This document shows, one piece after another, positions 8,258 to 36,470 of a DNA stretch of 64,000 bases; within the stretch, counting starts at the first letter, position 1, and the number at the start of each line of letters is the position of its first letter. The position numbers and the translations under genes were made by a program. The stretch is from the sequence record PX436236.1; one strand, 5' to 3'. The notes beneath the pieces are model-generated. The model was not told where the DNA came from and ran no database searches. It worked only from the letters and a program-made list of their open reading frames with translations. The stretch comes from a phage.

Positions 8258-8551
8258 TCAGCTATAACGATAACATTCGTTTGATTTACGTTTTGCAACT
8301 CGATGAGAAGTATTGTAATCAGGTTCATCGTCATTGTAAACATCTTTTTTCAGCTTTCTCACTTCTTTACGAAGCTGGCGGTTCATTTCGTTCTTAACTT
8401 CAGAATCAACACCGCGCATACGTTTCCACTTGTCAGAACGGAAGATATTTTCTTCAACCAGTTCCTGACTTACGCCGTCCGGTGCTTTACGACGTCCGGA
8501 ATAATAAAAATCTTTTACAGACAATTCTTTACGACGAATAGTTTTACCCAT
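8258..8551 (-). CDS. Hypothetical basic protein
   Basis: 97-aa ORF rich in K/R. Confidence 0.35.
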   Translation of the reverse strand: MGKTIRRKELSVKDFYYSGRRKAPDGVSQELVEENIFRSDKWKRMRGVDSEVKNEMNRQLRKEVRKLKKDVYNDDEPDYNTSHRVAKRKSNECYRYS

Positions 8552-8553
8552 AG

Positions 8554-8808
8554 TTACCTCAGCAGTTTGTATCCAATAAGATTTTTAATGTATTGGACAT
8601 CTTTGACATCCAAATCTAACTTAATATCTTTCAGGCGTTCGGTCAGAGTAAGAAATGATACACGTTTCCAATTCTTAACAGGACAGCAATAAGTTTTCGG
8701 GCCGTTGGCGATTTCAATATTCTTATCAGTGACGGTGAGAAAAATCAGGCGCTCATCATCCAGATTAAGGGTGACGACATTTTTCATTGAATGTAATTTC
8801 AGGCTCAT
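8554..8808 (-). CDS. Hypothetical protein
   Basis: 84-aa ORF. Confidence 0.35.
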   Translation of the reverse strand: MSLKLHSMKNVVTLNLDDERLIFLTVTDKNIEIANGPKTYCCPVKNWKRVSFLTLTERLKDIKLDLDVKDVQYIKNLIGYKLLR

Positions 8809-8987
8809 GATTTAATTTCCTTAGCTACTGAACAAAATAAAGAACGGTCACACACCATCAATGGAGCATCAGGGTGAGTCAAAGGTTGATACCATACATC
8901 GAGATTTGTTACCTTTGTTACTTGAACAGGGTAGCCATTTACTGAATAATACTGGTCGGCTTTAATTTCTTTATCTTGGATAGTCAT
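8805..8987 (-). CDS. Hypothetical protein
   Basis: 60-aa ORF with GAGGAG RBS; degenerate PeSL-like promoter just upstream (about 9005-9045). Confidence 0.35.
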   Translation of the reverse strand: MTIQDKEIKADQYYSVNGYPVQVTKVTNLDVWYQPLTHPDAPLMVCDRSLFCSVAKEIKS

Positions 8988-9046
8988 AATGTTCTCCTCA
9001 TGTGTTGATAGGATAGACTATAACACGTGAGGAGAGGAAGTAAATA

Positions 9047-26974: not shown

Positions 26975-27274
26975 TTAGAAAGAACCAGAACCTCTAATTG
27001 TGTTCTGGCGACCTTTATTTTCTAATTCGGAGTGGTCGATTTCATATGCTTGTGCTACGCCAAAGGCCTTTTTAACTTTAGCTAAAGAACCTTTAGATGT
27101 AACAATATTAAAAGTATTACCTTTGGTAAAATCAACAAAATCGACTTGTACGCCCTGTTTACCGAGGCTTGCTACAATAGCATCAACATATTCTTGGTCT
27201 AAATTGCCTTGAACTCCAATTTGAAATGCTTTAGGAGCTTTGGCTTCTGTGATAAATTCTTGATAAGTTTTCAT
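26975..27274 (-). CDS. Internal-protein-type virion cargo protein (CTS MKTYQEFITEA)
   Basis: N-terminal capsid-targeting sequence shared with T4 IPI/II/III; 99 aa. Confidence 0.55.
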   Translation of the reverse strand: MKTYQEFITEAKAPKAFQIGVQGNLDQEYVDAIVASLGKQGVQVDFVDFTKGNTFNIVTSKGSLAKVKKAFGVAQAYEIDHSELENKGRQNTIRGSGSF

Positions 27275-27317: not shown

Positions 27318-27734
27318 TTAAGCGTAAATAGCCTTGCCATAATGTTTGTACCAGGTAGGACGCTGTGCAATTTTTTCATCCAAACGGGTCTGAGATATAG
27401 CAATAGAAGCTTCGTGTGGAGTATAGTCACCACGGAATTCCTGAGGAATGTCACTAATGTCCTGGACAGTAGTATCCTTGATATTAAAACCACGTTTTAA
27501 ACATTCGGCTATAAGCTCAATTTGTCGCTTACGTAAAAATTCAAGCTTATCGTAAAAGAATGTAACATGGCCTGTGCCAAGGATAAAAGTAGGACTGATT
27601 TTGAAATCACGGACATGTTTACCATTAGCAACATGCTTACGAACTGCACCGAAAACACGTGGTAATTCACGATATTCAGCCATTAAGTGTTGGTCAGCCA
27701 ATTCAGATACTAAGGTAAGGTTGATACGAGTCAT
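27318..27734 (-). CDS. denV: Endonuclease V (pyrimidine-dimer DNA glycosylase) DenV
   Basis: Start [35 protein letters not shown] at 27734 (GGAG RBS); 138 aa; T4 DenV-like. Confidence 0.9.
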
Positions 27735-30177: not shown

Positions 30178-30406
30178 CGTCTCGTTCCCATGATTGTTTA
30201 AAAATATCTTGCATAATAATTTGAAGTCTATTTTCTGATGATGGACTTTCACTATCAGACACTTGAAGCATATAGTCACCAATAGGACAGAACATATCCA
30301 TATCGCTTTCTAAGTCTTCTTTAATTTTCTCTTCTGATGTTCCGGTATCATAGGAATACAGGTAAGAATCACATGACTCAGATTTAATATAAATTGCAAT
30401 ACTCAT
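30170..30406 (-). CDS. Hypothetical acidic small protein
   Basis: 78-aa ORF rich in D/E/S. Confidence 0.35.
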   Translation of the reverse strand: MSIAIYIKSESCDSYLYSYDTGTSEEKIKEDLESDMDMFCPIGDYMLQVSDSESPSSENRLQIIMQDIFKQSWERDDE

Positions 30407-30996
30407 TTACGGCATTCCTCAATAAACTCATTTAAATTCTGTTTGATTTTACCTTCGTCGTAAAGACGTTGTTGACGACGTAAACGCCATGGCATTTCAA
30501 TAGCCAAGCACCAAATACTTAAAGCAGCGCCAGCGGCGGCAAGGTTCATTAATCCAGCGCCAATAATAGTTCGTTCTAGCGCATCATTCCAGTTGGCATC
30601 GATTAAAAATGAACTCAGCACTAACATTGGAAGTAAAGTAATAAAATACGCTACAACATATCGTCCGAACGTAAGCCATTCAGTATCAATGAGCCTGGCC
30701 TTTCCATCTTGGAGACAAATATACTTATCGTCAGTGCGAGTGATTTTCTTTACTGGTTGCCAGCCGTTTACAATATAGCCCATTTTATATTCCTCAATTA
30801 AAAGCTGTTTCATTTCGGCAGTACAACCTGACCAATCTATTGTACTGGCTGAAATTCCTTCATCACCGTCATCGATATTTCGCCAGGACTTTTTAATAAT
30901 CATATGTTCACCACTTGGGATAATAATTCCGGCATTTTCCGACCTACGGATGAAGTTTGTATCAATACCCATACATCCAGGTTCATAAAGGGCCAT
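30403..30996 (-). CDS. Membrane protein with C-terminal NLNEFIEECRK tail
   Basis: 197-aa ORF; two or three hydrophobic helices; C-terminal motif shared with two other ORFs. Confidence 0.45.
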   Translation of the reverse strand: MALYEPGCMGIDTNFIRRSENAGIIIPSGEHMIIKKSWRNIDDGDEGISASTIDWSGCTAEMKQLLIEEYKMGYIVNGWQPVKKITRTDDKYICLQDGKARLIDTEWLTFGRYVVAYFITLLPMLVLSSFLIDANWNDALERTIIGAGLMNLAAAGAALSIWCLAIEMPWRLRRQQRLYDEGKIKQNLNEFIEECRK

Positions 30997-31685
30997 TACC
31001 AGCCCTCCATAGGAAATTCCAGATATACTTGAGCATTAACACGGATTTCATTAGTAATCTTTTTAACACGGTCTGTATTACGAGACACACGACCAAACCA
31101 GCGCCACCCATTACTTACTGCACGAGAACCTGTATGCCACGTCTGCCAATCAAACTGGAGCAACGTGCGGTCAGGAGCATCCCACTTAGTTAATTCATTA
31201 GACTCAATTTTTTCCAGAACTTCTTTATGCCACTGGCGATAGATAAGTTCGCCTTCAGGAATCTGACTGAACTGTGCAGTTCCGGTTGCAAAATGAGTAG
31301 GACACACATCAGCGTTAACAAGACCAAGAATATGTTCAGAATGGTATCGAGGATTGTCATAATCAGGTTGCCCTGCGGTAATAAAGTGTTGACCCACCGG
31401 AATATCCGGGCGTGGTACATCATCATGGTGATAACCTGGGATAGCAGGATACCAACCAGGCATCAGCATGTGAACACGAGAATCAAATACAATATCAGGG
31501 CCACATTGCCAATCTTCAGGCAGGTTTTCAATAAAGCTACGAGTAATAGGACCGCCGTGTTTATGAGCAAAATAAGCATCGCAATTAAAGAACATAGGCT
31601 CATTTTTAATCATATCATTACTGATATCTTGAGCAAAACCACCGACTGCACGAGCTTGAGAATTAAAAGTTTTCGGACCGTTCAT
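30996..31685 (-). CDS. Hypothetical protein (229 aa; His/Asp-rich, possible metalloenzyme)
   Basis: Long ORF; PGWYPAIPGYHHDD segment; no confident family call. Confidence 0.45.
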   Translation of the reverse strand: MNGPKTFNSQARAVGGFAQDISNDMIKNEPMFFNCDAYFAHKHGGPITRSFIENLPEDWQCGPDIVFDSRVHMLMPGWYPAIPGYHHDDVPRPDIPVGQHFITAGQPDYDNPRYHSEHILGLVNADVCPTHFATGTAQFSQIPEGELIYRQWHKEVLEKIESNELTKWDAPDRTLLQFDWQTWHTGSRAVSNGWRWFGRVSRNTDRVKKITNEIRVNAQVYLEFPMEGW

Positions 31686-31699
31686 AATATTTTCCTCAC

Positions 31700-31912
31700 T
31701 TACTTTTTGTTGAAAAAGTACATTTTACCTTTAGGGGATAAGGATACACGAAGTGCGTTACCAATACCAACTGAACATTTAACCAGGTCAGCAGATTTCA
31801 ATTCACCAAATGCTTGACGAAGGTCACCATCACGAGTGTTAACCATCAGGCATTTAGCACCAGCTGCACGAACTTCGTTTAACATGTTGATTGCTTGGTT
31901 AGAAAGTTTCAT
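31700..31912 (-). CDS. Hypothetical small protein
   Basis: Start MKLSNQAINML at 31912 with GGAGAA SD; PeSL promoter upstream. Confidence 0.4.
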   Translation of the reverse strand: MKLSNQAINMLNEVRAAGAKCLMVNTRDGDLRQAFGELKSADLVKCSVGIGNALRVSLSPKGKMYFFNKK

Positions 31913-31938
31913 TTTATTCTCCATTTCACTCTGTTGTT

Positions 31939-31978
31939 TTGATAGGTCTATAGTATCACACCTATAGACCTTGTACAC
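31939..31978 (-). promoter_or_regulatory. PeSL-type early promoter/stem-loop repeat
   Basis: GTGTACA-N16-TACTAT with conserved core; GGTCTATAG...CTATAGACC inverted repeat. Confidence 0.5.
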
Positions 31979-31990
31979 TGTTTTGTGCAA

Positions 31991-32950
31991 TTATTTTTCG
32001 AAAGGACGAATTAAATGATGGTTATCTTGGAAACGCTTGATGTAGTCGTTTTCACCTAAAGTCTTATACATATTCACTACAGCTTGGTAGTTTTCCCAGG
32101 CGTACTCGCGGAACCAACCTGAAGTGATTGAGGTACACACTTTCTCAAGAGCCATATAAAAACTTAATGATGGTGAAATATTGAAGTCATTAGGAACCTG
32201 TGAACGTTCTAGTGCCAGGACACAAGTTTCTTCATATACACCAGCCAGTTTAATAGCTTCAGGCAAAGCCTCGAACTTCTCACGAGAGGTCATGACTTCA
32301 GAACCTTCCTTCATATAAAAGGTATATGCAGGGCGTCCAGCCAATGCTACTGCTTCATGAATAGAGTCATGGTCCAGCGTATAAATGGTATCATTAAAGA
32401 ACGATGATTTGTTTACGTCCAATTTAGGGTGAGAATAGCTCAACGTTTCTTTTTGACGTTGCAGCATAATTTCCTGGAGTTCTTCGTTAAGGGTGATACC
32501 TTTATTACGAAGGTATTTGATGTGTGACATAGTTTTCAAGAAGAACGGATTATTCTTAAGGAAACGATGAGAGGTTTTGATAGCCAGACAGATATCAGGG
32601 GTGGCCCAATAGAAACCAGTAAGACGGTCCTTTTTAATATGATTTTCAGCATATTTCAGGAGACGATAGCTTGAAGTGAAATCTTCGTCTTGAAGCTCAC
32701 CGGTAATTTCTCGTACGTTAGTCAGAGCACGAACGATATAAGCTTCAAAATAGGTTTCTTTACCATTATGCATACATTTGAAAGCCTGGACATCAGGATT
32801 GTCAACGTGTACATGGGCGCCGAACATACGTGCTTTAAAGTGATTCCATGAGCCTTGGTCGGCAATGAAATCCCAATCAGAATTTTCGATATGCTTACTT
32901 TCAATCAGACCAGCGTGGTGCAGTGCACGAGAACCAATAACTAACATCAT
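31991..32950 (-). CDS. Hypothetical protein (319 aa), possible nucleotidyltransferase fold
   Basis: Start MMLVIGSRALHH at 32950 (GAGGAAAAT RBS); GS...SDWD arrangement loosely fits an NTase motif. Confidence 0.4.
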   Translation of the reverse strand: MMLVIGSRALHHAGLIESKHIENSDWDFIADQGSWNHFKARMFGAHVHVDNPDVQAFKCMHNGKETYFEAYIVRALTNVREITGELQDEDFTSSYRLLKYAENHIKKDRLTGFYWATPDICLAIKTSHRFLKNNPFFLKTMSHIKYLRNKGITLNEELQEIMLQRQKETLSYSHPKLDVNKSSFFNDTIYTLDHDSIHEAVALAGRPAYTFYMKEGSEVMTSREKFEALPEAIKLAGVYEETCVLALERSQVPNDFNISPSLSFYMALEKVCTSITSGWFREYAWENYQAVVNMYKTLGENDYIKRFQDNHHLIRPFEK

Positions 32951-32969
32951 AATATTTTCCTCAGTAAAC

Positions 32970-33209
32970 TTAAATTTCAGCGACGTAATCGTTATGCAAT
33001 TCCCACATATCATCAGAATTATTCTTAATGATAGGAATTATCTCATTAGAGATTTCTTCAGCATAAGGGTCATTGATACAGTGGGCATCTTCAAAACGAA
33101 CACCGTAATCAGACTTCTTATAAGAGAAGCCATAAATCTTTTTAAACTTGGCGCGAGTAATGCGTACCGGTTCATTAGACTTATCGGACATCGGAGCGTA
33201 ATACCACAT
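32970..33209 (-). CDS. Hypothetical small protein
   Basis: 79-aa ORF with GAGGAG RBS; promoter ATGTACA-N17-TACTAT upstream. Confidence 0.4.
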   Translation of the reverse strand: MWYYAPMSDKSNEPVRITRAKFKKIYGFSYKKSDYGVRFEDAHCINDPYAEEISNEIIPIIKNNSDDMWELHNDYVAEI

Positions 33210-33252
33210 ATGTTCTCCTCATGTTTGTGTAGGGTAATAGTAACATGATTTT

Positions 33253-33603
33253 CTAGAGTTGTACATCACTTCTGCAATATTCTAAAAATAATTTATCATT
33301 GTCTACTGTATCCCAACGACGCCAAGACGGGTTCCAGACCAAAGCGTTGTCACCACAATCATTGAGCTTAAAATGGTCGTAGTACATAGCTATGTGTCTA
33401 GTCTCGTCACCAGAGAACCCCAGTATAGGCTCACCGCGGGTGTGATACATATGATGGTGCATTGAGAGGTCGCATTTGTAAAACATCTCACGTTTACCAC
33501 GAACGAACAAGAAGGCCTGTCCATTCATATAGAATTCTTTATTTGTTTTCAAAAGATATTTGAATACTGAATCTTTATGCATAAGTCCTCCTACCACATC
33601 CAT
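33253..33603 (-). CDS. Hypothetical protein
   Basis: 116-aa ORF. Confidence 0.35.
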   Translation of the reverse strand: MDVVGGLMHKDSVFKYLLKTNKEFYMNGQAFLFVRGKREMFYKCDLSMHHHMYHTRGEPILGFSGDETRHIAMYYDHFKLNDCGDNALVWNPSWRRWDTVDNDKLFLEYCRSDVQL

Positions 33604-33612
33604 GTGGTTAAA

Positions 33613-33840
33613 TTATTTTCCTAACGAAATACGAGTAGGTTTTTTACCGAAATAGTCTTCATAAGAACCATCTAAACGACCTGCTTTAGACCGACAATAT
33701 GAATCGTACTTTTTGTAATAAGTCATCTCAGTATTATAACGCGGGTGTCTATCAGCCATAATAATACTTAACGGCCAACCTTTGGCATAATCGCGAAGAC
33801 CATTTATTTTACGAATGTATCTTTTCTTTAATTTTAGCAT
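33613..33840 (-). CDS. Hypothetical basic small protein
   Basis: 75-aa ORF; its ATG overlaps the stop of paralog 1 (ATGCTAA). Confidence 0.4.
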   Translation of the reverse strand: MLKLKKRYIRKINGLRDYAKGWPLSIIMADRHPRYNTEMTYYKKYDSYCRSKAGRLDGSYEDYFGKKPTRISLGK

Positions 33841-34058
33841 GAGCTCGGATACCAGATTTTACCATCGGCCTGAGCAACGAAGGTGCGACCAGCTTCTTCG
33901 CCATAACACGAGCTATTCAGCCAATCTTCGAGACGAACTTCACCGTCATAATCGTCGAGCTCAACACCAAAACTTTGAGCAGAAGCCATATCTTTTACTT
34001 TCTTATACAGTGCAGCCAGTTCAAGTGCAGCTTTTTCTAATTCATTAATATCAGACAT
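33834..34058 (-). CDS. Paralog 1 of the W-x-SS-x-C-terminal small acidic protein family
   Basis: 74 aa, ends ...GKIWYPSSC; GTTTACA at 34088-34094 upstream. Confidence 0.5.
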   Translation of the reverse strand: MSDINELEKAALELAALYKKVKDMASAQSFGVELDDYDGEVRLEDWLNSSCYGEEAGRTFVAQADGKIWYPSSC

Positions 34059-34069
34059 TTTTTATCACC

Positions 34070-34282
34070 TTAGCAAGACATAGAGGATGTAAACCAGAAA
34101 CCTTCACCTTCCGGAATACCGTAGTCATCACGGACCCATTCGTAATCATCATATTCCGGGTTCTTTGGAGAAATGTATTCTCCACGACCAGAAACACGGA
34201 ACTCTTCACCCGTTTCGTCAGCCACAGACTGGCCTTTACGTACTAATTCACGGATTTGGTTTTCAATTTCATCAATAGTCAT
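34070..34282 (-). CDS. Paralog 2 of the W-x-SS-x-C-terminal small acidic protein family
   Basis: 70 aa, ends ...GFWFTSSMSC. Confidence 0.5.
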   Translation of the reverse strand: MTIDEIENQIRELVRKGQSVADETGEEFRVSGRGEYISPKNPEYDDYEWVRDDYGIPEGEGFWFTSSMSC

Positions 34283-34291
34283 TTTATTTCC

Positions 34292-34573
34292 TTAACATTC
34301 AGAAGAAGAGGACACCCAACCACCATTTTCTAGGCTGGTAGTGTAATCATGTTGGTTTACAATAGCGTACTGAGCTTCACCGTATTCTTCCCAGTGGGCA
34401 AGGTCGGCTTTCAAGGCGCCAGGAGAATAATAGTCACCGCCCATACCGCGAGCAGGGTATATATTAAAATGAGTCTCATATTTGTTTGCAATTTCCTCGG
34501 CACGACGAATAGCTTTATGGATATCATTTACTGCTTCAGCCAATTCTTTATTTTTATGGTAATCATTCATCAT
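34292..34573 (-). CDS. Paralog 3 of the W-x-SS-x-C-terminal small acidic protein family
   Basis: 93 aa, ends ...GGWVSSSSEC. Confidence 0.5.
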   Translation of the reverse strand: MMNDYHKNKELAEAVNDIHKAIRRAEEIANKYETHFNIYPARGMGGDYYSPGALKADLAHWEEYGEAQYAIVNQHDYTTSLENGGWVSSSSEC

Positions 34574-34582
34574 AAAATTTCC

Positions 34583-34873
34583 TTAGCACATTGCCGAAGA
34601 GGAGATCCAAGCACCAACTGTAACGACGCCATTTTCAACTTCACCACCGTTGTTTTCAATTTCATCTTTAAACCACTGGGAGCATTCATAACCGACAGGA
34701 TAATATGTACGGCCTGAACCATAATCACCAGTACCGAATTGGATACCATACTTATCGGCAATAGCTTCACATTCATGTTCGATGGTATTCACTTTATTCA
34801 GAAGAGCATAGATAGCCTTTTCTGCAGATTTCTCATCATTGTGTTCCGGGATTTCAATTTCAATTTTATTCAT
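34583..34873 (-). CDS. Paralog 4 of the W-x-SS-x-C-terminal small acidic protein family
   Basis: 96 aa, ends ...GAWISSSAMC. Confidence 0.5.
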   Translation of the reverse strand: MNKIEIEIPEHNDEKSAEKAIYALLNKVNTIEHECEAIADKYGIQFGTGDYGSGRTYYPVGYECSQWFKDEIENNGGEVENGVVTVGAWISSSAMC

Positions 34874-35223
34874 GATTTACATTCCTTAATAAAGGTTTCA
34901 AGGTCATTACGTTTAGTTTGTTTTACATACTCATTATAATTAGCCATAGCTAAAGCATATCTCTTTTTACGTGGCTTGTTTATTTTATTAGTTTGGGCAA
35001 TATCAAAGACCCATGGGATAAAAAATCCTATTAAAGCCGGAACCCAAATCCATGCAAGGCTCATATCTTCAAACGGATGGCGAGGCATACCATTAATAAT
35101 CCCACCGACAAGAAATCCAATTATCCCTGCAGTCATACTAGTAGCAATGCCGAGGAATAAGGAAATAGCTATATCATAATCTGCTAATGCGTAACCAGGG
35201 TCGGTTTTACTAGGCTTATGCAT
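34870..35223 (-). CDS. Membrane protein with C-terminal DLETFIKECKS tail
   Basis: Start MHKPSKTD at 35223 (AGAGG RBS); hydrophobic helices; shared C-terminal motif. Confidence 0.4.
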   Translation of the reverse strand: MHKPSKTDPGYALADYDIAISLFLGIATSMTAGIIGFLVGGIINGMPRHPFEDMSLAWIWVPALIGFFIPWVFDIAQTNKINKPRKKRYALAMANYNEYVKQTKRNDLETFIKECKS

Positions 35224-35752
35224 TTTGAACCTCTTTAGCGTATTCGCGACATTCAGCAATAAAACGATTAAGCTTACGTTGTTGTTTACGACTTTCTAAT
35301 GTGTACTCATTAGCCAAAATAATAAGCTCATCTTTATCGTAATTTTTAATATCAGAGTAAGATGGGCGACGGTCAACCATTCCAAATACATCACCATTTT
35401 CTAAAGCTACATAACATACTAAATGGTAATCATCGTCTGCCATATTAAGAAGCACACAATCAGCGCTCTCGTTTAAAGAATATACCGAATAACGTAGTCC
35501 AGCGAATTCCACTCGTTGAATAGCCAGATTTACGTCAATAATTTCCAAAGCATCTTCAAAAGAAAGGTCTTCAGCTAAAGCAAAAATAAAAGGTAATTTG
35601 GTAGTATCGCCACGGCTAGATGTTCTGCTTAAGAAATCGTTTGAATAGCCTAGGTCTTGGCGAATTCTATAAAGAACTGAATTAGTTTCATGTGAAAGAC
35701 CACTATGCTTAAACCAATCAATATTTGATATCAGGTCGTCATATAAACTCAT
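35216..35752 (-). CDS. Hypothetical protein with C-terminal KLNRFIAECRE motif
   Basis: 178-aa ORF; stop overlaps the next gene's start. Confidence 0.4.
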   Translation of the reverse strand: MSLYDDLISNIDWFKHSGLSHETNSVLYRIRQDLGYSNDFLSRTSSRGDTTKLPFIFALAEDLSFEDALEIIDVNLAIQRVEFAGLRYSVYSLNESADCVLLNMADDDYHLVCYVALENGDVFGMVDRRPSYSDIKNYDKDELIILANEYTLESRKQQRKLNRFIAECREYAKEVQNA

Positions 35753-35800: not shown

Positions 35801-36394
35801 TTACTTAAGTGAATTAATGTAGTCTTCGATATCAGCAGAAGTCGTATCCATTCCAACTTGTGGGCCTTTAAACGTTTCTACACGAAGCAGGGTGTCTTCA
35901 ATATCAATCTTAGTCAATGCAGCGATTTCAACAACATCATCGGCAGTAGCAATACCCAGGGCAGCCATATTACGAGTTTCACGAATGTACTCAAGCTTAA
36001 CCGCTAGTTCCTGGCGAGAGTCATCAAGTTCCTTAACCTTCAGTTTAATTTCATTACGCATTTCGATATAATCATCGGCTTTCTTACGAAGCTGGGTAGC
36101 TGTACGACGATAAAGGAGGCCAAGTTTAGCATGTACCTGGACATCAGCGCCTCCGGCAATCAGTTTACGAATTTCACGTTCTTTAGAAGCAGCGAGCTGG
36201 TCTTTTTCATTAGCCAATGCACGAATACGTTTTTCTTCATTCACAGACTTAACATGAGCAGTCTGGAGTTCAGTGATTTTATCAATCAGAGTAGAAGCAG
36301 CTTTTGTGTATTGGTCTTCGATTGACAGGTTCTGAGCCATTGCGGTGCCCAGTTTAGAACGAATGAATTCAACGATTTTCTTTAAAGTGTTCAT
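35801..36394 (-). CDS. Coiled-coil protein (197 aa)
   Basis: Long heptad-like helical sequence; promoter TTTACA-N17-TATAAT at 36438-36467 with a hairpin enclosing the -10. Confidence 0.4.
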
Positions 36395-36470
36395 AGTATT
36401 TCCTTCAGTTGGTTAACGTTTTGTAATCCATGAGGACATTATACCCTGTCCTCTGAGGTTTGTAAACATT

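Follow-up and report, generated by a model that had tools for sequence, protein, structure and literature searches.

LiaI and YdjG/H/I are small membrane proteins whose genes neighbour that of a PspA homolog, which they recruit to the membrane; these anchors are not known to share a C-terminal peptide. The LiaI-LiaH and YdjG/H/I-PspA pairs of Bacillus subtilis have been cited among the membrane anchors of PspA-like proteins (PMC7619361); in Vipp1 and ESCRT-III polymers, docking of helix alpha5 on the hairpin tip of a neighbouring subunit is essential (PMC8281802). Here we describe a gene cluster in a 64,000-nucleotide stretch of phage DNA (PX436236.1; the whole of this stretch is called the window) in which three proteins, the products of open reading frames (ORFs) 1 to 3, carry a common short tail at or near the C-terminus and are encoded downstream of e.6, a gene for a putative PspA/Vipp1-like protein. 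Our best overall reading of the locus, which we regard as somewhat probable, is that the tails are docking helices for a common partner, most probably e.6. The four genes are as follows (TM, transmembrane):

35801..36394, minus strand: e.6 homolog, 197 aa, named e.6 in the Bp7 annotation; proposed hub of the cluster
35216..35752, minus strand: ORF3, soluble, 178 aa, in the e.5 position directly after e.6, tail ...KLNRFIAECREYAKEVQNA to the stop codon (from sequence)
34870..35223, minus strand: ORF2, 117 aa, two-TM hairpin of the e.3/e.4 family, tail ...DLETFIKECKS to the stop codon (from sequence and BLASTP)
30403..30996, minus strand: ORF1, e.2 homolog, 197 aa, N-terminal soluble domain followed by a two-TM hairpin and the tail ...NLNEFIEECRK to the stop codon

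The membrane carriers of the tail resemble PspB and PspC in predicted topology (small inner-membrane hairpins with cytoplasmic termini and a C-terminal helical segment), in being encoded beside a PspA-family gene, here e.6, and in their proposed role of tying a PspA-like protein to the membrane. They differ from them in having no sequence relation: ORF1 to ORF3 gave no match in Pfam, NCBIfam or PADLOC, profile searches of the PDB with alignments of the e.5-position (A2) and e.2 (A4) proteins gave none either, and the matches in PHROGs were to families of unknown function only. They differ also in that the tail is not limited to membrane proteins, one carrier being soluble, and can recur on as many as five proteins of a genome; that the system is phage-encoded; and that its binding is something we infer. 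LiaI and YdjG/H/I share with the phage carriers the character of small membrane proteins encoded beside a PspA-family gene, but no homology between the two groups was detected. A second likeness is to helix alpha5 of ESCRT-III, Vipp1 and PspA (Interface 1) and to MIM helices, each a short C-terminal amphipathic helix that docks by its hydrophobic face (PMC8281802); the C-terminus of e.6 itself has a pattern similar to that of the tails. The phage tails, by contrast, sit on proteins outside ESCRT-III, so that docking would occur in trans, and no MIT or AAA partner was seen in the phage system. A docking helix for PspA-type adaptors is a known kind of mechanism, of which the phage instance appears to be new.

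A preliminary description of the window, made from its sequence, had reported that ORF1 to ORF3 end in a common L-x-x-F-I-x-E-C-(R/K) tail, and this holds for all three proteins with two amendments: the ORF3 copy lies 15 residues short of the C-terminus, and the position before the Cys varies across the wider family, being Glu in 15 and Asp in 2 of 32 tails surveyed from 12 phages and Glu in 26 of 91 unique tails. The hydrophobic residue three positions before the Phe, on the other hand, is conserved in that family, and a sequence logo of the 91 unique tails reads [L36 I20 F18 V10]-[E/N/D]-x-F-[I74 V17]-x-x-C-[R81 K10], which places the conserved side chains at i, i+3, i+4 and i+7 on one face of a helix. 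The other features reported for the three proteins were also borne out: each tail is preceded by a basic stretch (WRLRRQQR in ORF1, KPRKKR..KQTKR in ORF2, SRKQQRK in ORF3), and hydropathy assigns two TM segments to ORF1 (108-126 and 143-161), two to ORF2 (22-40 and 55-73) and none to ORF3, giving two membrane proteins and one soluble one. In an AlphaFold2 model of ORF1/e.2, the second TM segment and the tail form one helix (138-196, predicted local distance difference test score, pLDDT, ~70-80); the mean pLDDT of this model is 57.7, and it is usable for this helical segment only. By prediction, then, the tails are helical and cytoplasmic, the latter in line with the positive-inside rule, since basic residues follow the TM segments of ORF1 and ORF2.

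Six-frame translation of the window contained exactly three matches to FI.EC, all of them the tails of ORF1 to ORF3, in answer to the suggestion that the genome be searched for more copies. The relaxed pattern F[IV]..C[RK] gave five matches, compared with 2.45 +/- 1.6 in shuffled sequences, the two extra ones lying in non-coding frames; among the genes of the window, the general motif, hydrophobic-x-x-[F/W/Y]-[I/V]-x-x-C-[R/K], is confined to ORF1 to ORF3. An internal stretch of endonuclease V (denV; around position 27515, minus strand) resembles ..RKQQRKLNRFIAECRE.. of ORF3; as it lies inside a well-known fold, we judged this resemblance to be due to chance.

Homologs in related phages carry the motif as well. 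The window belongs to a Dhakavirus, a T4-type phage with 94-97% identity to QL01, MX01, Bp7 and JS98, and in a database of 5.8 billion proteins all 72 of 72 homolog clusters retain the tail; among e.2 proteins whose bodies have diverged down to 39-41% identity, FI[EK]ECRK is still invariant. T4 and T6 have four consecutive tail genes, e.5 (..LEKFVKECREYVK..), e.4 (a variant, ..IMKFVKESRCKSQS), e.3 (..MKEFVIDCRKIK) and e.2 (..LNNFITECRKLK), and the complete T4 genome holds four six-frame matches to F[IV]..C[RK], three of which are the tails of e.5, e.3 and e.2. In laboratory T4, e.2 (L002 9001-9480, AF158101.6; OZ035787.1) has two in-frame stops and is annotated as 102 aa, while e.2 is intact in T6 and others (162 aa) and the downstream remnant in T4 encodes ..FITECRKLK. 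The laboratory T4 e.2 is thus a natural knock-out of one tail protein.

We then compared e.6 loci from 10 further phages of nine genera, with T6 representing Tequatrovirus beside Mosigvirus, Jiaodavirus, Winklervirus, Kagamiyamavirus, Moonvirus, Biquartavirus, Ceceduovirus and Pseudotevenvirus. Every one of these loci has a soluble, motif-bearing protein encoded directly after e.6 (the "e.5-position" protein), and most have one to four more carriers, mainly two-TM hairpins. Across 11 genera the e.5-position proteins share ~15% identity, and their sole invariant columns are the F and C of the motif. A further 46 loci were found in IMG/VR with an e.6 profile, and ORFs with the strict motif near the C-terminus were counted: 123 of 636 ORFs downstream of e.6 had it, whereas the 545 ORFs upstream yielded none and the 414 on the opposite strand a single case. 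The gene immediately after e.6 carried the motif in 41 of the 46 loci, and tail genes followed e.6 in 43. As judged from sequence, the tail is confined to the cluster downstream of e.6 in all Straboviridae sampled. In Pseudotevenvirus and some metagenomic relatives (L010, L011, L066 and L067) the e.6/e.5-position gene pair lies between nrdD and nrdG, the genes of the anaerobic ribonucleotide reductase, instead of in the vicinity of nudE and e; the two genes move together.

The coincidence of tail codons with signals of the next gene raises the question of whether the peptide or the nucleotide sequence is conserved. The motif codons of the three genes are placed as follows:

35246..35272, minus strand: ORF3 motif codons L-N-R-F-I-A-E-C-R; clear of the next gene's Shine-Dalgarno sequence, AAAGAGG, found further downstream
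34876..34902, minus strand: ORF2 motif codons L-E-T-F-I-K-E-C-K; the K-E codons AAGGAA are the Shine-Dalgarno sequence of the next gene, with an ATGA start/stop overlap
30409..30435, minus strand: ORF1 motif codons L-N-E-F-I-E-E-C-R; the E-E codons GAGGAA are the Shine-Dalgarno sequence of the next gene, with an ATGA overlap

The similarity of the tails could have been imposed by such a Shine-Dalgarno sequence or overlapping start, or left by recent gene conversion. ORF1, ORF2 and many homologs do have the Shine-Dalgarno sequence of the next gene inside their tail codons, often K-E (AAGGAA), E-E (GAGGAA) or R-K (AGGAAA), and in T4 (L002) e.4 (8268-8660) overlaps e.3 (8642-9004) such that the e.3 ATG falls within the R-C codons of e.4 (cgATGc) and the e.3 Shine-Dalgarno sequence, AAGGAA, within its K-E codons, an overlap that may explain the shifted variant FVKESRCKS of e.4. 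However, AAGGAA and AGGAAA coincide with variable positions of the tail only; F, I/V and C have codons that are not rich in purines and that vary synonymously, the 32 tails using TGT (15) and TGC (14) for Cys, TTT or TTC for Phe, every Ile and Val codon and all six codons for Arg. Moreover, the ORF3 motif stands upstream of and apart from the Shine-Dalgarno sequence, the distance from C-[RK] to the stop ranges from 0 to 25 residues in the 91 unique tails, and T4 e.2 retains the tail peptide with other Arg codons and a shifted Shine-Dalgarno sequence. Free synonymous variation places the constraint on the peptide and not on the ribosome-binding site, and the tails of the window differ from one another at synonymous sites, which excludes recent conversion. 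We therefore give almost no credence to a nucleotide origin of the similarity. Dual coding probably shapes the variable positions, such as the preferences for K-E and R-K, and cannot explain F, I/V or C. The tail is almost certainly a real functional peptide module.

The bodies that carry this module are unlike one another. Once the tails are cut off, BLAST sorts the carriers into 24 clusters, among them several kinds of soluble and several kinds of membrane protein, and hhalign comparisons of the tail-free bodies of the e.5, e.3 and e.2 families gave probabilities of at most 1.3%; the three families are therefore otherwise unrelated, as the preliminary description had proposed. By sequence comparison, ORF1 corresponds to T4 e.2, ORF2 is a member of the e.3/e.4 family (BLASTP, T4 e.3 at E=9e-11 over the full length and T4 e.4 at E=1e-3) and ORF3 is the counterpart of e.5. 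In the last case the tail alone aligns in a pairwise comparison with T4 e.5, and the two proteins are linked through intermediates by single-linkage clustering with tails removed. The e.2 proteins of Dhakavirus (alignment A4; 30403-30996 in the window) are mosaic: all alleles agree almost completely in the N-terminal domain and the tail, but for the central TM region there are two widely divergent versions, which suggests recombination within the gene.

What could such unlike proteins have in common? The gene that heads the cluster in the window, e.6, is conserved in more than 1100 phage records, and its product is related to a family of proteins that remodel and repair membranes. A profile of 11 e.6 sequences searched against the PDB gave Vipp1 as the top match (E=0.02), colinear from residue 1. 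A second profile, built from 26 diverse members that a search of 1.84 billion representatives with a single e.6 had supplied, matched Vipp1 at E=1e-4 and PspA at 7e-3, in alignments spanning residues 1-140 to 1-141. The Pfam family PspA_IM30 (PF04012) matches 4 of these 26 members (best E 8.9e-10) and is precomputed on two distant members, P0105 and P0098. The AlphaFold2 model of e.6 (pLDDT 84.6) consists of helices 2-22, 25-80 and 86-145, that is, an alpha0 helix followed by a long hairpin, and a Foldseek search of the PDB gave Vipp1 or PspA for each of its top 10 matches, with probability 1.0; archaeal CdvB2 and E. coli PspA appear lower down. Together, profile searches, Pfam (transitively) and the predicted fold identify e.6 as a distant homolog of PspA/Vipp1/IM30 in the ESCRT-III superfamily. 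The open-access literature yielded no paper on e.6 as a PspA-like protein or on the tail motif, and nothing relevant on T4 e.2 to e.6 or on phage-encoded PspA, a phylogenomics study of the phage-shock system included; e.6 appears to be a previously unrecognised phage PspA/Vipp1-like gene.

Two parts of e.6 recall the tails themselves: its C-terminus, ..ADVQEYINSLK, fits the pattern hydrophobic-x-x-aromatic-I-x-x-L-K, a likeness of pattern without statistics, and its N-terminal alpha0 helix also has a hydrophobic-x-x-aromatic-I pattern, which is suggestive at the level of pattern only.

The variation of the tail among distant e.6-bearing lineages bears on what the tail might do. Downstream of e.6 homologs of 23-30% identity, tails such as SFIDECK, EYIHECR, KYLDRCK, EFIDYCK, EYIMQCR and AYIEKCK occur. 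In one lineage (L069, L071, L073 and L074), most of the tails identified instead read hydrophobic-x-x-I-[IVL]-x-x-A-[RK], and this type is found on up to five consecutive genes in one genome (for example ESILARAR, DSIIKHAR, ESILANAR, KAIVHRAR, KTIIARAK, EHIIEQAR, DEIVTKAR and GMIINNAR), along with two imperfect copies, ERIVFITR and DKIVLGAI. The tails of one genome thus switch together, F to I and C to A, as would be expected if they were fitted to one partner or to each other. Peptide-level selection, confinement to the genes downstream of e.6 and concerted change within genomes all support the idea, put forward in the preliminary description, of a module shared within a single membrane-associated system.

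The same proposal allowed for a modification module, and the Cys might indeed be the point of the motif, whether it binds a metal or Fe-S cluster between subunits, switches with redox state or is covalently modified: it never varies in the e.2, e.3 and e.5 families of all the Tevenvirinae sampled and is always followed by R or K. Yet Ala replaces it in most tails of the e.6-bearing lineage just described, and other residues do so in some Tevenvirinae paralogs: the e.4 family has Ser, Ile or Val at this position, and Met or Ile is found there in others ("LSWIKEMK", "LDFIRGIRS"). Each tail has one Cys, at i+7 on the hydrophobic face, with no second ligand nearby. These replacements indicate that the Cys acts as a small hydrophobic packing residue and not as a chemical group; a chemical role is accordingly disfavoured, and we consider it very improbable.

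The tail might instead be a lipid-binding targeting sequence at the membrane surface, like those of MinD and FtsA, in keeping with its position as a C-terminal amphipathic helix after basic residues and with the membrane association that a soluble carrier would gain from it. But lipid-binding helices accept hydrophobic swaps, and here F and C are invariant among proteins of ~15% identity and switch in concert; the hydrophobic face comprises four residues amid many charged ones, and a targeting helix would be needless on integral membrane proteins. We regard membrane targeting as improbable.

Only slightly less improbable, in our view, is that the tail binds a host protein (a protease adaptor, an envelope or stress factor, or PspA/PspF) or is a degradation or sorting signal, roles in which short C-terminal linear motifs often act. 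The surrounding genes are early-type and non-essential, as is usual for host takeover, and the PHROG class of e.2 is "moron, auxiliary metabolic gene and host takeover". Against a host target, the motif is kept in phages of Escherichia, Klebsiella, Serratia, Citrobacter and Aeromonas and in metagenomic lineages, its lineage-wide switch needs a matching change in the host target, and it has no match to a known degron or family.

The tails might also bind each other, forming a hetero-oligomeric helical bundle with F, I/V and C/A in its core that would connect the soluble e.5-type protein with the membrane hairpins, in which case e.6 would be a mere neighbour. Genomes encode 1 to 5 tail proteins, the switch to I..A is explained as readily by mutual packing as by a shared partner, and a residue as small as C or A on the hydrophobic face is well suited to helices that pack tightly together. 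At Biquartavirus and Pseudotevenvirus loci, however, a single motif protein, that of the e.5 position, stands beside e.6, and a hetero-bundle is therefore not always possible, though a homo-oligomer still would be; moreover, the e.6/e.5-position pair is the one invariant feature of the cluster, even in the nrdD/nrdG neighbourhood. Mutual binding of this kind seems to us unlikely, though it deserves more weight than a host target.

In our view the tail is probably a helix by which its carriers dock on a common partner. It would be a short cytoplasmic amphipathic alpha-helix of consensus [L/I/F/V]-[E/N/D]-x-F-[I/V]-x-x-C-[R/K], serving as a portable docking module on unlike bodies: the soluble e.5-position protein, the two-TM hairpins of e.3 and e.4, and e.2 with its extra N-terminal domain. 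The tails may all bind one partner, and e.6 is a tentative candidate for it, put forward with rather less confidence than docking itself. Tail binding would then anchor or regulate an assembly of e.6 on the cytoplasmic side of the inner membrane in infected cells, with putative roles in membrane integrity, the proton-motive force or membrane remodelling. A more specific and more doubtful version is that e.6 forms a phage ESCRT-III/PspA-like machine, recruited or regulated by adaptors (e.5-type proteins, e.2, e.3 and e.4) through a shared helix that mimics the alpha5-type or C-terminal helix of the polymer.

Several points weigh against the docking explanation. The e.6 of the window alone has no Pfam match at or below 0.01, so that its link to PspA_IM30 is transitive and structural. 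Only a few e.6 columns, in scattered places, separate Cys-type from Ala-type lineages, and the hairpin tip shows no particular conservation; covariation therefore lends no support to e.6 as the partner. The enrichment of the motif downstream of e.6 in the 46 loci has a Fisher p of 2.5e-51, a value inflated because these loci are phylogenetically related, and gene adjacency alone is no proof of interaction. The concerted switch of the tails could fit tail-tail binding or a host factor equally well. Lastly, the two stops in laboratory T4 e.2 make at least e.2 dispensable.

If docking on e.6 is the correct explanation, these phages, T4 itself among them, would possess a viral adaptor-driven ESCRT-III-like system, operating in bacteria and overlooked for decades, and a membrane-remodelling superfamily of all cellular life would gain a phage-encoded member with a new adaptor logic. 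The nine-residue tail links T4 genes from e.2 to e.6, which are without known function in a much-studied virus, into one system, for which it provides a concrete hypothesis, that of tail-dependent binding and of a part in keeping the membrane intact or remodelling it during infection. Dozens of "hypothetical" proteins of Straboviridae can, in addition, be annotated with the motif as a practical marker.

The genes of this region, all on the minus strand, follow in the order e.6, ORF3, ORF2, four small paralogs, other genes (including one with DUF7275/DUF7277), ORF1, a 78-aa ORF, nudE and the lysozyme gene e, with start/stop overlaps of 8 nt between ORF3 and ORF2, 4 nt between ORF2 and the next gene and 4 nt between ORF1 and the next gene. 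The tail genes form one co-directional, translationally coupled cluster starting with e.6. Upstream of it stands one further feature:

36438..36466, minus strand: promoter-like site of sigma-70/early type, TTTACA-17-TATAAT, 11/12, the best consensus match, ~45 nt upstream of e.6

This site is a consensus match only, and the regional total of such sites is not above the expectation from shuffled sequence. No terminator-like site was found at a minus-strand gene boundary, the sole one (34196-34213) lying within a paralog ORF.

Another short peptide of T4 invites comparison with the tail. MKTYQEFIAE is the capsid targeting sequence of T4 internal head proteins, and L/I-x-E, with an invariant Glu at P1, is the cleavage site of the gp21 protease. 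The ..Y-Q-E-F-I-A-E of the targeting sequence resembles the ..L-N-E-F-I-E-E of the ORF1 tail; it differs in being N-terminal where the tail is C-terminal, and the Cys-Arg part of the tail is without counterpart in it. We rejected mimicry of the capsid targeting sequence or gp21 site, as the Glu of the tail is not conserved, the terminus is the wrong one and some carriers are integral membrane proteins and so not capsid-packageable. Six ORFs of the window on the minus strand (ATG at 27274, 28097, 28735, 29216, 38375 and ~40627) begin with MKTY(N/Q/K)EF(I/L)xE, which we take to be the T4 internal-head-protein capsid-targeting sequence, and these MKTYxEF[IL]xE starts were judged unrelated to the tail.

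The four paralogs that the three tail genes bracket (33834-34873, minus strand) are encoded in tandem, measure 74, 70, 93 and 96 aa and have Ser-rich ends with a terminal Cys (..PSSC, ..SSMSC, ..SSSSEC and ..SSSAMC); they are without the tail motif. A functional link between tail and array, hinted at by this bracketing, appears incidental, T4, T6 and Jiaodavirus having tail genes and no array. The array and the DUF7275/7277 gene form a block inside the cluster in Dhakavirus and Winklervirus that is absent from T4, T6 and Jiaodavirus; since the tail genes of the latter three are contiguous, the bracketing reflects insertion into, or loss from, an older e.5-e.4-e.3-e.2 run. Relatives of the paralogs occur inside the same cluster in Winklervirus (L006 9829-10394) and upstream of e.6 in an Aeromonas phage (L007 5293-5517). 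The DUF7275/7277 gene of the window (31991-33013, minus strand) is a 340-aa ORF, ~319 aa from its likely start, with Pfam DUF7277 and DUF7275, and a homolog lies at the same position in Winklervirus (L006 10461-11393).

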